Shown piece by piece: positions 18,381 to 25,267 of a DNA stretch of 64,000 nt. The translations under genes were made by a program, and so were the position numbers. The stretch is from Heptranchias perlo (taxonomy: Eukaryota), in contig NC_090354.1 in the NCBI RefSeq assembly GCF_035084215.1, positions 10,664,001 to 10,728,000 of the forward strand, written 5' to 3'. Under the pieces are notes generated by a model. It did not search any database and was not told the DNA's origin. It worked only from the letters and a program-made list of their open reading frames with translations. Numbering within the stretch: the first letter of the stretch is position 1; every line of letters starts with the position of its first letter.

Positions 18381-18852
18381 AATTGTTGTTGAGGTTGATA
18401 ATTGAGAGGCATAACATCACCTACTAAGTGCTTTGTCTATTCATAGTGCATCGGTGCTCTCACCTATTCGCTGAGAGCCTCTCGAGCATATCACAATTTT
18501 AAAAGCAATTTTTTTTTGCCAATGTTCTGCCCTCTTCTGAATGCAATTCCACAGGCACCATGTCTCGCCCGTGACAATTCTTCATGTCTGATCCTAGACA
18601 ATGCGTGTGGAGGGTTAAGAATGATTTTATTGTAGGAGAGACAGCAGGTAATGGGGGAAGGATGCGGTGCTTTTCATTCTCCACATGAACACATTTCATT
18701 CCTAAAATAAATTTGATGTCGCCTAGTTTAAGGAAATACAGTGAAAAAGCGACTTAACCTAAACCTAGAGACGCAGACGAGGATTCTGGCCCTTCTGCAC
18801 CCCCCCCTTGATCCGGCGGACACTTACTCCTACGCCGCGGCTCTGCTCTTAC

Positions 18853-19086
18853 CTTACACGCTGAGAAAACCCCGAGTTTCTCCAATTTCTTGGCCCGAGG
18901 GAAAGCGCGGACCTGAGCTTTGCGCTGGACTGAGCGTTGCTGGCTGCTGCTAGCGCCGGGACGGGCGGGGTCGGCCGGGCTAGGGGCCGGGGCGGCGGCG
19001 GCGGCGGCGGGCGAGGGAGAGGCCGCGGCCTGGGACTGATACTGCGGCTGAGCCCGGGCCTGCGAGGCTTGCGCTGCCTCCGCCAT
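18853..19086 (-). CDS. KAT2A: KAT2A coding exon 1 (234 bp, Ala/Pro/Gln-rich N-terminus)
   Basis: ATG at 19086 in GGTGATGG context; MAEAAQASQARAQPQ...RKAQVRAFPRAKKLEKLGVFSACK; donor GTAAGA; lies in a CpG island. Confidence 0.93.
18991..19010. repeat. (GGC)n/(GCC)n trinucleotide run encoding poly-Ala in KAT2A exon 1
   Basis: ggcggcggcggcggcggcgg read directly. Confidence 0.85.
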
Positions 19087-19463
19087 CACCGTGCCCCCTC
19101 TGCCATGGAAACCGCCAGGGCCGCCACTGCGCCGGCGCGACGCGAGGTGCATATTGGGAAATGTAGTCTCACTCTCACCCCCCCCATCTTTCATGAAGGG
19201 GATACGATGTCAAACGCGCATCAATTCAACAACTAATTTAAACTTAAAAAGATCAGAATAGTTAAACAGATCTTAATCTGTAGTGATGGGCGAGAAATAA
19301 CGGGTTTGGTGAGCTTTTTAATTTAATTTCCAGCCGAATGGCATCATGGGAGTTGTATTTTTTTTTAAGGTTGGCATTGAGGCGCATGCGCACATTGCAG
19401 TCCAGTACAAGCGACATCTTAACACGAGAGGCGAGGCAGAGAGCTGGTCTCAGCTCATAAACC
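19087..19463. promoter_or_regulatory. Bidirectional KAT2A / RPL41 promoter region
   Basis: Two ZNF143(Staf)/THAP11-type motifs on the minus strand (GACTACATTTCCCAATATGCA 19148-19168; AAATACAACTCCCATGATGC 19341-19360) and an NRF1 palindrome GCGCATGCGC at 19382-19391; divergent ATGs 377 bp apart. Confidence 0.75.
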
Positions 19464-19475
19464 ATGAGAGCCAAG
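19464..19475 (+). CDS. RPL41: RPL41 (eL41/eS32) coding exon 1: MRAK
   Basis: ACC ATG AGA GCC AAG followed by the consensus donor GTGAGT. Confidence 0.9.
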
Positions 19476-19929
19476 GTGAGTGTGGGGGGAGAAAGAATCG
19501 ACCCGAATATAATATATTAAGTATATATTTAAATTCAGGTGCTAATGAAGAGACTTTCTCCGCCTCGCGTGTTTCTTTCGAAGGCCGCAACCATGCTGGG
19601 GGAATTGGGCCTCTCCAGCACGCGGTCGGCCAGCAGCCTTTTCCCCGCCTCTACACTGGGGTTTGTAGAAGGGAACGCAGTTGTAATTTTATTGGAACAT
19701 TCCTGCGCACATGTTGGGCTGGATTGCATCCTATTTAAAAATCCAAACACCTGGATGTGAAGAAAATGCAAAAGCTTAACTGCAGGTAATAGAACTCGGT
19801 TATCAAAAAAAAAAAATCTGTGCTTGGTAAAACTCGATCAGCCAGCATCTGTGTGGAGAACAAAAAGTTAGTATTTCAGGTGTGGACCCTTTACCAAAAC
19901 CGCTGGTTTTGTTAGTACCAGAGGAGATT

Positions 19930-20130
19930 GTGGGGTGATTTAATAGTGCTGGTTATGGGGCCATAGATACAAGAGATTTAGGACAGAGAGCAAGAGAAAC
20001 CTCTTTACATCAGATTGTGAGGAATGCACAACCAGAGTAGAAGCAGAAACCATCTTAAAATTTAAGAGATTAGATAAACGGTTTAAGGGGATATGGGAAC
20101 AGGGCAGGCACATCGGATAAGGAGGATTGA
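19930..20130 (+). mobile_element. Degenerate CR1 3' fragment in RPL41 intron 1
   Basis: GGGCCATAGATACAAG...TTTACATCAGATTGTGAGGAATG...AAGGGGATATGGGAACAGGGCAGG resembles the CR1 3' end at 4.85-5.05 kb. Confidence 0.55.
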
Positions 20131-20368
20131 GATCAACACGGATTGGTAATTTTATAAGGGAGAAGGGTGATTGCAATCCCAATTGGCTTGCATTTTATTG
20201 AACATATCTTTGTCTGATTTGGAACTGCTGTATATTAGTGAGTTACAGTAAATTGTGCACTTGGCTGTCTGACACATTGAAATAAAACATGTAAGAGCAA
20301 ATCTGTCATTGTTGCTAGAAAAAAATTACAAAATCCCTAATGGTCTTTTTTTCTCTTTTTATCTCCAG

Positions 20369-20391
20369 TGGAGGAAGAAAAGGATGCGCAG
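20369..20391 (+). CDS. RPL41: RPL41 coding exon 2 (23 bp): WRKKRMR(R)
   Basis: Branch-like CCCTAAT, long polypyrimidine tract and CCAG acceptor; TGG AGG AAG AAA AGG ATG CGC AG; donor GTCTGT. Confidence 0.9.
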
Positions 20392-22735
20392 GTCTGTATA
20401 AACCTCTTTAAAAAAATTTAATTAAAATTGGTGGATTACATTTCAGCTGGTGAATTGAGGGATGGTTTCCAATATTTTACTTCAATCCCAAACATATTCT
20501 TGACTACCTATTTTCTCCCTAATTCAGTTCCTTTTTGAGAATTGAAATTTAAGGTAATGTCTTGTTCTGTTGGTTTTGCTGAGCTTATTTCCTGGCTTGC
20601 TGTGCTGTCTCATGCTCTTTTTTTTTGATTCCTCTTTAGTTTATTTGCTTTCCAGGCAGTAGGGGGTGGGTCTTTGTTTGGAGACTTTTCTGCCCTCCTT
20701 CTGTGTCCTAGATTACTCTCCTATGGTCATGAGAGTATCTTCACTGGCCCCAATATTTAGGTAAATTTCTGACCGAGCCTGGGATAACAAGCCGAAAACG
20801 TTGTGTAGATTGCTTTAATTACAGAATCTCGTGCGCCTTCGTAGAAACTTTTTTTTTTAGCAAAAAAGCCATTATATATAACTGGCCTAACCTGCTTCTT
20901 TGAAAGTTTCAACTCAACAGTTTGAACCCCTCAAATTTGCCAGGGCTTGTTGAATTTAAATAACTGCCAGCCATAAACCAAACTGAACAAATCACAGTAA
21001 GCCTTTGTTTGAATGTGGCTTGCCTCCTCCCTCAAGCCTTGGAGGCAACAACAGAACTTCAACATTTGCATCAAGTAAGACTTGTGACATAAAATTACTG
21101 CTACAAAGCTAAAACTGGACAAGTTACATAATTTTTTTCTACAGTGGAATAGCAGCAGTACCCCATAATAAAACAAACTTCAAAGAAGAGCTGAATATTC
21201 TTATCTGAAATAAGGACACCAGGCTGGTAGCTCAGGGCCAGTCAGAACCTGAAAGAGGTTAATGTTTTCGGTGTGTTCGGATGAAGTATCATGCCCAATA
21301 CATCCACCCTGCTGTGCACTTTTTAATGTAAGAAAGCAGTTTCCCCAATGATGTAGTGCATGGTTAAGATGTACCTAGTGCATGAGAGTTTTTCTTCCTT
21401 TTGTAAGTTTTAACATTCTCATTCAACACGTACATTCTTTTTTAAAATTGCTATCTTCGATTTAATTGGAGAAGTGATCCTACATTAGTCAACCCAGCCT
21501 TCTTTCAAGTGATCTTCCATTCAAAAGATGATAAATGCTATGAATTATGTCAGATAAGGTGGTAGTCAAAAACATCCTTGACTTTTCTCCATCTTGCAAG
21601 TCAGAGTTGTAAAGATGAGCCAGTCGTGCCTGTCACTATCGTATGCTACCTAGGAAATGCAGTATAACCACAAACTGGGCAGGGCTGAAAACAAACAACT
21701 GTTATAAATTTTTCCTACTTTCTCAGTGACTTTGCAACATTTATGTTTTGCTTAGCTTTGTCAAAAACGAGTAAACCCACAATCTGCTTCCATATCCTGT
21801 GTGGTTTTAGTGAATCTTTAACATGCACAGCATTAGTGTGTGTCATACCACAACATTAGACTGTTGGGTGCTAATCCACCTCCACAGAAGGAGGGAGCCA
21901 CTTAAAACTTTATATGTTTGTGTATGCATAAAAATAACTTGCATCTCAACTACTGGCATTATACAAATAGCATAGCCCTTAAGTATTATGGTAGTTCTTA
22001 TAAATCTTGTGGGTTTACCATAATGTTCATGACTTGGCAGCTCTTACATTGTGGGTTCATCAGTCTGTTTACACATAATTTTAATGCAGTGACAAAATAA
22101 TAATTGAGTGGGAAGTTTCCATTCCATTTTAAAACTGGAAGATTGATGGATGTGAGAATCATTTGCTATTTCAAGCCGGTTTAATTTGAACAGTCAGGTG
22201 CACATTAGTTCTGCCAGTAATACTAGGTGGCATTATGCCATACAGCACTGTATGCATAGCCAAGCTTATTAATAAGGAATTGCATAGAATCCCAGGCTTT
22301 TGTGACTGACAAACAAAGGGCAAACCCTATTACAGTTCCAATCTACAGACCTCACATAGATGTGGACGCAAGTAATGTTAAAATTTCCATAAGGAATGTT
22401 GATGGGACATAGCAATTTTAATATCCATGTATACATAGAGGGAAATGTCAGTGGGGCAATGCAAGCTCTATCCCAGCACTTCACAGTAGTCAGCTCAAAC
22501 ACCCAGACATGAAACATTTACTCTTTGGTTAGTGAATGGTGGCTTGTGCAGAAGGAATGTAATACAAAAATGTAGAGGGGAGAAGGGGAAATTCTTCCAC
22601 GCTATGCAAGATTACATATCTTTGTCTAGTAAGAATTCAAACATTGCATTTACTGTTTGTATGCCACTGCATTAATTTCAGCAAATGCATTTGGCGGTTT
22701 GTGGTTCATTTTAAACTTTTTCTATTCCTAAACAG

Positions 22736-22778
22736 ATTGAAGCGCAAGCGGAGGAAGATGAGGGCGAGGTCAAAGTGA
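22736..22778 (+). CDS. RPL41: RPL41 coding exon 3: (R)[13 protein letters not shown]
   Basis: Acceptor TTTTTCTATTCCTAAACAG; A TTG AAG CGC AAG CGG AGG AAG ATG AGG GCG AGG TCA AAG TGA; spliced CDS is 78 nt = 25 aa plus stop. Confidence 0.9.
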
Positions 22779-22953
22779 GGCCCACTACTGAAGAGCATCG
22801 AGGCCACGGTGGCTGCTGGTTGTTTTAAGGTTCAGCTTCATCAGTGGTCAATGGAAGATTTTCAAGCTTTCGTATTTTAGGGCCCACATGTTCATTTATC
22901 AGTTACTGAACTTTGTTATGCGTGTGTTTTATGCAGTTTTTGATTTGTTATAA

Positions 22954-22959
22954 AATAAA
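22954..22959 (+). terminator. Probable RPL41 polyadenylation signal
   Basis: AATAAA ~175 nt after the stop, followed by T/GT-rich sequence. Confidence 0.65.
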
Positions 22960-25267
22960 ATTATTAACAATGTTTTGAAAGTTTTTTTTAAATCTAGGCA
23001 GTGATTCCAAAGTTAACTTACTTTTACTATTTTAGTCTAAACAAAATACTGAAGTTCTTGTTATTCATGATATGTAACAGAATCTCCATTTGCTGCACTT
23101 GTATTATTTGACATTCTGATTATTATCTACCAGAATTTTCATACAACACCACATTGCACAGCCCATTGATACCAGTCTCTTGTCTGGTGTGAATCATCCT
23201 TGCAGCCCAAGGAAGATTAAGTTCAGTATATTTGTATTGTTTGTCTTCATTCCTGTGCTTAGGGTACTGTTATACCAAGGTCAGAATGTGGGAAATTTCT
23301 ACTATCTGCCAAAGGGGTTAAAATTATACAGTACAGAAAGAGGTCATTCAGCCCATCATGCCTGGTGTTGGCTGTTTGGAAGAGCTATCCAATTCCCCTG
23401 CTTTTTCTCATAGCTCTGCAAATTGTTCCTTTTCATGGAAATATCCAGTTCCCCTTTGAAAGTTACTGAATGGTTCTTCATTATTATGGGTGATAAAGGT
23501 CCACCTTGCAATGTTTACTAATTTCCTGAATCATTTCTGTCCAATAATTTAAAAAATCTTAATCTGTTAACTTTTGCATTATAAATTCCTATTTCCATAT
23601 TTATAATGGATACTGCTTGTGTAAATGTCTTTGAAGCTCCCAGATAGGCAGGAGGGTGTAATTACAGTGTGACAAATTTACTTGGGCAGTTGTGGATGTA
23701 GGAATTTATAATAAAAATAATATGGCAACAAAATAGGGACTGGATTACATGTCTAGCAATGCAGGCATGGTACTTGAACATGTAATGGACCATCCTCTGA
23801 CTAGTTGGAGATGAATGTTTTGTGATCAGATTCATTCCTACTCTTATTTGTAGCTATGAGACATTGTTGTCATTTTTCCTTTCATGTATTCCGATCTCCA
23901 ACACTTTCTCTTTCTTCCTCCCCCACCAGTACTTCACTAGCAGCATTACTTCCTGTCCAGCAACAACACATTTTTGCTCCCTTTACATTACTGCTATCAG
24001 CTTTGCAATAGGATGTTCTGAACAGCTGGTGTTTGCTCACAAATAGCTGCCAGCAGCATTTGAAGCATCTGATTTGCAAAAGACCTCTGCTCCTGAGCAT
24101 ATCTTCTAGCTACTCATGAGACTTGGAGGTTTTCAGCTGTTGGGTGTCCAGCCTAGAAACCATTTTTTATAGAAAGCATCTTTATGGTCTCTAAGACTAC
24201 TGCTCTTATGCGTTGTGTGGGTAGAGGATAACTGCTTTATTACAAATGTTGCCAAAAATGCAAACAGTCATAGTCTGAGGCACTTTAGCAATGAACTGAC
24301 ACTATGTAATGGATAGGCAGATTGATTCTTAATAGCGACCTGTATTTTTCAGTATAGAGGTTAGTTGGTGGGCAGTAGAATCCCCAATAACAGGTCTGAC
24401 CAGGTAAGTGGGGCTCTGATCAAACTACTATAACTTCCAAAATACTTCCTTGCATTATCCCATTTTACAGTGACTGGGTAAGTACTAGAAGAGAAACGTT
24501 TGATTACAATTGAGCCTCATCCAGTACATAAATTGTGTTTCAGTTGGCTTTCTGCATAAAAATGGTTTCTTCAGTGCATTAAGTGGGGATCTGGTGCACC
24601 TGGGTCTCTGTACTGCTTGATTTACAAGCTGGGGGGGGGAAATAACTTCACATTCAACAGCTTGGCGGTTTAAAAAGTGGTCTTTTTTTCACTTGTACAA
24701 TTCTCTAATACAAAAAAATCATTATCAAATGAAGACTGATAAACACCACTCGGTTACTTATTGATGCCTTTTTTTTGTCCTATTGAATGAGTTATTCAAT
24801 TGTTCCTTGTACACTAACTAGAATAATAGCTAGCAGCAAATCACATGTCTTAAATTCAATCAAGTGGTTCTGATGAAGTCAAACTGAGACATATAAGTTT
24901 GCAAATATCAGCAGAGGTCCAGGATAGCACTGTCAACTCTTACATGGAAAACATACTGAATACTGTCATTTTAGTTACAAATGGACATGTGTGCAGAAAA
25001 GAAGGCCGGCGGAAAGTGAAGAGAATAAAAAAGAAAGCTTACAATTACAAAGGATTTGAGGAATATGGGAATTGCTAGGTGAAAAAAGACCCTAATCCAT
25101 CTAAGCACAAGATACAAAGATAATGGAATTGTTGACTAATCATAGCAATCAATATTCGACAACAGACCCAGAAATCACGAGGAAAACTCCAATGGTGGAG
25201 AGTTTTGGGAACCTAGGTCCAAAGTCACCTTTATCCACCCAAGCGTAGGACACTTCCAACATACGTG

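Follow-up and report, generated by a model that had tools for sequence, protein, structure and literature searches.

The ribosomal protein eL41, also named eS32, is a helix at the ribosomal subunit interface that forms bridge eB14, and 17 of the 25 residues of the human protein are basic (PMC13485352). It has been reported that, in mammals, elongation is slowed and long proteins become depleted when this bridge is lost (PMC13485352), and that trypsin-based mass spectrometry does not detect eL41 (PMC13485352; 10.1101/2025.03.17.643322). Among chordate ribosomal protein genes, only RPL3, RPL7, RPL22 and RPS27 are given as 2R-retained in the available text of a survey that included no cartilaginous fish (PMC7072992). 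The retention of Rps27 and Rps27l has been attributed to split expression (PMC10313321). RPL41 itself has four exons in tilapia (PMC7072992). The matches listed in the open-access literature contained no description of RPL41 paralogues from 2R or in sharks, and no RPL41 passage was found in the available text of PMC2447035. The presence of three intron-bearing RPL41 genes in one genome, described here, is new.

One of these genes lies in the window, the 64,000-nucleotide stretch of the Heptranchias perlo genome that was analysed (NC_090354.1, 10,664,001 to 10,728,000; its contig is labelled C33). A first-pass annotation of this DNA had proposed three very short coding exons, GT-AG introns, an intact 25-codon frame and a downstream AATAAA, all of which were reproduced by re-splicing: the joined exons of 12, 23 and 43 coding nt give a 78-nt frame of 25 codons plus TGA, the introns of 893 and 2344 bp both run GT..AG with a polypyrimidine tract, and a second AATAAA lies at 23710. 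The features of the locus are collected in the table below.

Table. Features of the RPL41–KAT2A locus (window positions)
Feature	Position	Strand	Basis or remark
KAT2A first coding exon, divergent neighbour	18852..19086	-	PCAF_N match, KAT2A names; contigs end at 18852, donor beyond
Shared bidirectional promoter region, 377 bp, CpG-rich	19087..19463	.	CpG profile; contigs diverge from region
ZNF143/THAP11-type ACTACANNTCCC site, exact match, predicted binding	19156..19167	-	motif per PMC3627581
Second ZNF143/THAP11-type site, one mismatch, predicted binding	19348..19359	-	motif scan
GCGCATGCGC palindrome, NRF1-type site, predicted binding	19382..19391	+	sole match in window; 0/100 shuffles had one
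RPL41 5' untranslated leader, minimum extent	19435..19463	+	contigs reach 19446 (X1-X3) and 19435 (X2)
RPL41 coding exon 1, codons 1-4	19464..19475	+	sequence and junction contigs
Intron 1, 893 bp, GT..AG, phase 0	19476..20368	+	skipped in X2 and X5 contigs
Exon 1 extension to second donor at 19785	19476..19785	+	contigs in X1, X2, X3
RPL41 coding exon 2, 23 nt	20369..20391	+	sequence and contigs
Intron 2, 2344 bp, GT..AG, phase 2	20392..22735	+	sequence and contigs
RPL41 coding exon 3 with Ala22 (codon 22764-22766), Lys25, TGA	22736..22778	+	sequence, PDB and Pfam matches
RPL41 3' UTR, ends near AATAAA 22954-22959	22779..22959	+	contigs also continue beyond 23300

Splicing was examined in assembled contigs from four of eight sequencing runs of two studies, which are presumed to be RNA although none is recorded as such; that the contigs are spliced argues that they are. 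Exact skips of 893 and 2344 nt at the GT..AG borders occur in contigs from two of these four runs (X2, from organism A, and X5, from organism B), so that both introns are removed in two species. The intron pieces in X5 diverge by roughly 5-10%, and its junctions are identical. In X1 the intron-2 junction is present but lies within a minor isoform, and X3 shows no joint at this place but has loose ends whose letters at 22733 are those of exon 2. Loose letters ahead of the X2 contig at 19435 are presumably library adapter. The isoform with extended exon 1 meets a stop after 18 codons, 265 nt ahead of its junction, and is therefore likely a decay substrate; a further minor acceptor within intron 2, at 20639/20640, appears in a single low-depth contig. 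The spliced X2 and X5 contigs, together with the intact frame, bear out the first-pass view that this is not a processed pseudogene. The window RPL41 is a real, intron-bearing, spliced eL41/eS32 gene.

The identity of the product is supported by several comparisons. The last 20 codons to the stop (22716-22775, the first six being intron) match Pfam PF05162 with 27 bits against a cut-off of 22.3, and all 11 PDB matches at E<=10 are eL41/eS32. A protein database search with 40 codons ending at the stop gave no candidate, a result that is uninformative for so short a protein. Counted on the translation, 17 of the 25 residues are basic, and residues 11-25 are identical to PDB chains 4v6w_Cn (fly-type) and 7r81_p1. 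Mammalian eL41 (11hg_41, 6qzp_Ln) likewise has 25 residues but carries Gln22 where the window copy has Ala22. The Ala22/Lys25 combination of the window copy resembles Ciona, fly and fungi, with Ala22 found in PDB chains 4v6w, 7r81, 7pzy and 3j6x and reported for Ciona (PMC7072992). Gln22 also occurs in wheat (4v3p), which indicates that position 22 flips easily and that Ala22 could be a reversion.

The head-to-head arrangement with KAT2A was confirmed as well: the divergent gene, whose ATG lies at 19086 on the minus strand, is 98% identical to shark KAT2A, and 377 bp separate the two start codons. Two ZNF143-type sites within these 377 bp were equalled by only 1 of 2000 base shuffles. Across the window as a whole the one-mismatch pattern shows no enrichment (4 occurrences against 3.3 expected), so only its clustering in the promoter stands out. 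The palindrome GCGCATGCGC is of the NRF1 type. No C-led run of at least five pyrimidines was found within 100 nt of the RPL41 ATG.

Patterns of exon 2 with its intron flanks gave three and only three matches in the genome, through two patterns and with no match in the controls, and the exon-3 pattern recovered the same three genes plus two retrocopies (5/5). The genes lie on contigs C33 (the window copy), C7 and C49; all encode intact 25-mers and have both coding introns at identical positions. An assembly duplication was considered and rejected, as the copies differ at 10-16 of 78 nt. Residues 22 and 25 are the only ones that vary among their proteins, the C7 copy having Gln22/Arg25 and the C49 copy Gln22/Gln25, with Gln22 as in mammals; two of 25 residues thus separate the window eL41 from each sister. 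Between the window and C7 copies there are 13 differences in synonymous codons (about 14.5 synonymous sites) and three in changed codons (about 57.5 other sites), and between the window and C49 copies nine and four, respectively. The window frame is under purifying selection, with strong constraint and synonymous sites near saturation. The UTRs of the three copies cannot be aligned save for patches of 10-21 nt. Variable coding sites group C7 with C49 (10 sites, versus 3 and 6 for the alternatives), a count drawn from 19 sites of a saturated 75-nt frame.

Both sisters have a four-exon layout. C-led pyrimidine runs stand at -148 (C7) and -98 (C49) relative to the ATG, and both copies have a pyrimidine tract with an acceptor directly ahead of the ATG; the window copy appears to lack the untranslated first exon and pyrimidine-tract start of these copies. 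Spliced joints of C7-type exons 2-3, read from the letters at the joint, occur in X2 and X4. For exons 2-3 of the C49 copy in runs X2-X5, the distal 3' UTR was uncovered by contigs in all four runs, which represent at most two samples; the depth over C49 exon 3 seems to derive from C7-type contigs. Intronless Pfam matches number 11, of which nine are C7-type retrocopies, one is window-type and one is without a match. The retrocopies carry stops and many changes, and Lys25 is still read in three of the nine C7-type ones.

Hox9 was found on exactly four contigs (C2, C7, C33 and C49) and RAB5 on the same four, so the three RPL41 copies occupy different members of one paralogous quartet. On contig sizes alone, the chance of the two extra copies landing on separate contigs among the other three Hox-bearing ones is 0.005, a figure that is too low because gene density is ignored. 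Around the window copy, C33 carries KAT2A, RAB5 at 103 kb and HoxB9. On C7 the neighbours are PIKFYVE at 29 kb, RAB5 at 2.4 Mb and ERBB4, and on C49 they are SMARCC2 at 135 kb, with ERBB3-like, PA2G4 and RAB5 at 5.3-5.7 Mb, about 10 Mb away from the RPL41 copy (RAB5 about 10.7 Mb). Tight linkage to RAB5 is thus confined to the window copy, and the immediate neighbours are not the same among the three. Tandem-repeat arrays flank the C49 copy, 6.6 kb in intron 1 and 36 kb upstream. The fourth contig, C2, carries KAT2B, RAB5 and Hox9, and in the 100 kb between its RAB5 and KAT2B neither a fourth copy nor an RPL41 exon remnant was found. Remnants were likewise absent from 100 kb of C33 beyond the window and from 200 kb around PA2G4 on C49. 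No ZC3H10-type finger motif was seen in the loci examined, and neither a further 100 kb downstream on C7 nor a further 70 kb upstream on C49 yielded a gene that could be identified. A tblastn comparison of window segments with the C7 and C49 neighbourhoods gave only repeats among the matches listed. The cluster to which the C49 Hox9 belongs was not named by an atlas comparison; by elimination and from human gene order, we take C49 to be the HoxC and C7 the HoxD chromosome.

The reading that we prefer, with a probability of roughly 85%, makes the window gene an ohnologue retained since 2R, which supplies eL41 of the ordinary kind. The extra copies might instead have arisen within cartilaginous fishes by DNA-level duplication or transposition of a real RPL41, reaching Hox chromosomes by chance. 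This is improbable: the three copies lie on three different Hox9/RAB5 chromosomes, their synonymous sites are near-saturated and their UTRs unalignable. It draws support from the mapping having been done in one genome, from the lack of a copy in the stretch of C2 that was searched and from the differing immediate neighbours. It also agrees with the 13-species chordate survey, in whose available text RPL41 duplicates stem only from the teleost duplication (PMC7072992), but that survey lacked cartilaginous fish and its tblastn threshold (E=2e-5) would likely fail on exons of 4-14 codons.

Even less probable is that the window gene is the shark orthologue of human RPL41, moved beside KAT2A, the other two loci being secondary or decaying. 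Splicing of the window copy in two species and its Lys25, as in mammals, would fit, as would the 6.6 kb and 36 kb arrays that hem the C49 copy. Against this stand the mammalian Gln22, present in the C7 and C49 copies and absent from the window copy, the position of the C49 copy next to SMARCC2 on the ERBB3/PA2G4 chromosome, and the sisters themselves, both intact with the four-exon layout of tilapia RPL41, the C7 copy being the parent of nine retrocopies. That the gene is a transcribed relic, spliced only through sharing the KAT2A promoter and yielding no ribosome-bound protein, is scarcely credible. The missing pyrimidine-tract start in the 100 nt ahead of the ATG and the minor unproductive isoform agree with such a relic, but only two of 25 residues differ from each sister despite near-saturated synonymous sites, whereas the retrocopies have degenerated, and the second species uses the same junctions within diverged introns.

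The first-pass annotation had also likened the gene to human RPL41. The comparison holds insofar as this is a real intron-bearing eL41/eS32 gene, and fails insofar as it is one of three paralogues, has Ala22 instead of Gln22 and sits on the HoxB chromosome. Human RPL41 lies in the ERBB3-PA2G4-SMARCC2 region; the window copy lies outside such a region, on the HoxB9/KAT2A contig. The likely orthologue of human RPL41 is the C49 copy, which has SMARCC2 nearby and sits on the ERBB3/PA2G4 chromosome, and the window copy is likely not the direct counterpart of the human gene.

Under the ohnologue reading, a single ancestral RPL41 encoding Ala22/Lys25 would have stood in a RAB5/Hox/ERBB region and been quadruplicated, with loss of the C2 copy, on the KAT2B chromosome. 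Ala22 may then have been replaced by Gln in the lineage that gave rise to the C7 and C49 copies, followed by Lys25 to Arg (C7) or Gln (C49), and the bony vertebrates surveyed would have retained only the HoxC-linked copy. The Hox chromosomes cannot be uniquely paired (Simakov et al., PMC7269912), so the grouping of C7 with C49 is not independently required. The timing of the duplication is drawn from one genome. The window copy would be transcribed from a predicted ZNF143/NRF1-type promoter common with KAT2A, in place of the pyrimidine-tract start of its sisters, and by analogy with mammals its protein would lie between 18S helices 44 and 45, forming bridge eB14. Dosage or split expression, and not a new protein function, is the most likely reason why the copies were kept; as the protein is well known and the differences amount to two residues, the functional effect is likely small.

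A more speculative picture, possible rather than expected, is that three distinct eL41 proteins have been kept in shark ribosomes since the genome doublings. The KAT2A-linked ancestral Ala22 form would then escape TOP/mTOR translational control, be co-regulated with KAT2A and give rise to a type of ribosome whose decoding-centre bridge is specific to a condition or tissue, while the two autosomal copies would buffer the mammalian-type copy on a likely X chromosome. If the ohnologue reading is true, RPL41 joins the short list of 2R-retained ribosomal protein genes with three copies instead of two, and mammalian Gln22 is dated to one branch of the early vertebrate duplication. With the three genes, nature provides a test of whether paralogues make ribosomes heterogeneous at a bridge next to the decoding centre, and micro-exon RPL41 paralogues may have escaped tblastn surveys in other vertebrates.

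The window copy departs from the mammalian gene in belonging to a set of three intron-bearing genes, in its place on the HoxB chromosome and in its head-to-head arrangement with KAT2A. The 2R pairs RPS27/RPS27L, RPL22/RPL22L1, RPL3/RPL3L and RPL7/RPL7L1 are likewise described as near-identical protein paralogues on duplicated chromosomes (PMC7072992; PMC10313321), but RPL41 is not on that list, and the shark has a third copy where those families have two, an arrangement known so far from one cartilaginous fish only. Mouse Gm10076 is likewise a second locus that had been overlooked and contributes to eL41 dosage (10.1101/2025.03.17.643322); it encodes an identical protein, is annotated as a lncRNA and is discussed among pseudogene-derived microproteins, whereas the shark copy keeps its introns and has its own residue. 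Teleost RPL41a and RPL41b are also two intron-bearing genes from a genome duplication, with the four-exon layout of the C7 and C49 copies, but they are ascribed to the teleost duplication and encode identical proteins (PMC7072992), whereas the shark copies would be older and differ at residues 22 and 25.

The proposed three-exon RPL41 gene, encoding eL41/eS32, is borne out on the window sequence, with GT..AG introns of 893 and 2344 bp, a 25-codon frame and an AATAAA downstream. Human RPL41 has a coding length of 78 bp (PMC1459141). In a profile search, exon 3 by itself exceeds the Pfam cut-off for Ribosomal_L41, and all 11 PDB matches are eL41/eS32. The splicing predicted in the first-pass annotation was checked with contigs from public runs whose RNA status is guessed: in two of the four runs aligned, X2 (organism A) and X5 (organism B), both introns are removed to the nucleotide; the second junction is seen in X1, and X3 offers only loose ends that match. 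Among the X5 rows listed, the coding part of exon 3 holds no difference, and Ala22 is likely conserved in organism B. A minor isoform, with exon 1 extended to 19785, is likely a decay substrate because its frame stops after 18 codons, 265 nt ahead of the junction. It is virtually certain that the window RPL41 is a real gene.

KAT2A, 98% identical to shark KAT2A, is indeed the divergent neighbour, as first read, at an ATG-to-ATG distance of 377 bp. This gap is rich in CpG and contains two ZNF143/THAP11-type sites (motif as given in PMC3627581) and one NRF1-type palindrome, all predicted binding sites; the former motif has been tied to bidirectional promoters (PMC3082894). The contigs extend to 19125, which places a short upstream frame of KAT2A (see table) inside the transcript. 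The window RPL41 lacks a leader intron, and a pyrimidine run led by C is absent within 100 nt of its ATG, so that its mRNA may be of the non-TOP type.

Genome-wide, three loci in Heptranchias perlo fit a degenerate pattern of exon 2 and its splice sites, namely the window on contig C33 and copies on contigs C7 and C49. A looser exon-2 pattern returns the identical three, and an exon-3 pattern adds two retrocopies. All three genes have three coding exons that form an open frame, with introns at common positions and an AATAAA downstream. Their proteins differ at two residues only (window Ala22/Lys25, C7 Gln22/Arg25, C49 Gln22/Gln25); coding DNA shows 16, 14 and 10 differences per 78 nt, for the most part synonymous, and the UTRs are not alignable. 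A Pfam search of the genome gives 14 matches: the third exon of each of the three genes, and 11 matches that have no introns. Of these 11, nine fit the C7 transcript best, one fits the window transcript, its 3' UTR included, and one has no counterpart. Since retrocopies of both types exist, both genes have made germline mRNA. Lys25 in three of the nine C7-type retrocopies suggests that Arg25 of the C7 copy is a later change. Judging from the letters at the joints, the sample that contains the window transcript also has spliced C7-type joints, so at least two RPL41 forms are transcribed together.

Four contigs (C2, C7, C33 and C49) bear Hox9 genes, and these also carry the four RAB5 genes, which number three in mammals. 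The C33 Hox9 gene is HoxB9 (7/7 named matches), and its contig runs KAT2A, RPL41, an HSP20-family array and, at 103 kb, RAB5. On C2, RAB5 lies 94 kb ahead of KAT2B, and a 100-kb scan there revealed no remnant of RPL41. The C7 copy follows PIKFYVE by 29 kb, with RAB5 2.4 Mb off and ERBB4 on the same contig. The C49 copy has SMARCC2 at 135 kb; RAB5, PA2G4 and an ERBB3-like gene (top match ERBB3, ERBB4 a close second) lie at 5.3-5.7 Mb, and no RPL41 remnant was found in 200 kb around PA2G4. In human, the HOXC chromosome has RPL41 between PA2G4 and SMARCC2, the HOXB chromosome has KAT2A, HSPB9 and RAB5C, and the HOXD chromosome has PIKFYVE and ERBB4; on these gene orders, the C49 copy is orthologous to human RPL41, and the window gene is a paralogue. 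The window gene is read, with a probability of roughly 0.85, as an ohnologue retained from the early vertebrate duplications (2R) rather than as the human gene's orthologue. Judged by length alone, two extra copies would land on two other Hox contigs with a chance of 0.005, a value that gene density would raise. By elimination, the C49 Hox9 gene is likely HoxC9. Elasmobranch X chromosomes consistently carry HoxC genes according to a preprint (10.1101/2025.02.26.637739), so C49 may be the X chromosome.

Coordinates of RPL41 loci and other features
Feature	Location	Remarks
Window RPL41 AATAAA	window 22954	
KAT2A upstream frame	window 19086-19106, minus strand	6 codons; stop codon overlaps KAT2A start codon
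HSP20-family (HSP30/HSPB9-like) tandem array	window 28576-61226 and C33 to about 10.768 Mb	intronless, between RPL41 and RAB5; in window, 8 copies intact and near full length, 1 split, 11 further loci in next 40 kb (two broken); two subtypes, identity to first copy about 87% in one and about 71% in the other, both orientations
C7 RPL41	C7:73.11 Mb	
C7 RPL41 leader intron	C7:73107415-73107549 (L027:7415-7549)	110 nt, GC donor
Fourth RAB5 gene	C7:70698233-70698379	94% to RAB5C exon; on ERBB4/PIKFYVE chromosome; completes quartet on Hox contigs
C49 RPL41	C49:15.97 Mb	
Minisatellite arrays burying C49 RPL41	C49:15.87-16.07 Mb (L038-L057)	intron 1, 32-bp unit x205; directly upstream, different 32-bp unit x1129; further up, 43-bp unit x877; downstream, GC-rich 44-bp unit x487
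LTR-element or provirus-like insertion (labelled by eye)	C49:15853967-15863264	between near-identical terminal repeats, long open frames resembling gag, pol and env
LTR-element or provirus-like insertion (labelled by eye)	C49:5794794-5799308	
Hox9 first exon	C49:436755-437321	tip of C49
Window-type retrocopy	C3:94.0 Mb	
C7-type retrocopy	C37:24478723-24478794 (L009)	ATG and open 25-codon frame kept, five residue changes; probably decaying

Ala22/Lys25 also occurs in fly, Neurospora and yeast-type PDB chains, and Gln22 in mammalian chains and wheat, the organism labels being partly assumed from entry codes. Ciona likewise has Ala22/Lys25 (PMC7072992). On the simplest reading, the window copy would keep the pre-vertebrate Ala22, and Gln22 of the C7 and C49 copies would be a common derived state. 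These two copies are paired by 10 of 19 variable coding sites (other pairings, 3 and 6), and both have an untranslated first exon that starts with a pyrimidine tract, with an acceptor lying 12 or 6 nt ahead of the ATG; the four exons of tilapia RPL41a/b (PMC7072992) match this layout. The C7 leader is spliced in several retrocopies, while others retain its unspliced acceptor region, so this gene has had two 5' forms. Against this reading and the grouping of C7 with C49 count the few sites, saturation and Gln in wheat, as well as the published caution that Hox chromosomes cannot be paired uniquely (PMC7269912).

eL41 lies between 18S helices 44 and 45, forming bridge eB14, and, in both human cells and mice, losing it results in slower elongation and fewer long proteins (PMC13485352); the window eL41 would occupy the same position. 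Since eukaryotes carry either Ala or Gln at residue 22, the shark proteins are expected to be near-equivalent and kept for dosage or split expression. It is unlikely that the window copy is a specialised, non-TOP ribosome variant.

The open-access literature that was searched yielded no account of RPL41 paralogues in sharks or from 2R, and these loci may have an annotation elsewhere. A survey of 13 chordates, none of them a cartilaginous fish, names RPL3, RPL7, RPL22 and RPS27 as 2R-retained ribosomal protein genes and puts RPL41 duplicates down to the teleost duplication (PMC7072992). The window gene adds to the known eL41 genes and probably to the 2R-retained ribosomal paralogues. In their proposed retention for dosage or split expression, the shark copies resemble Rps27/Rps27l (PMC10313321) and mouse Gm10076 (10.1101/2025.03.17.643322), for which the same kind of argument has been made.
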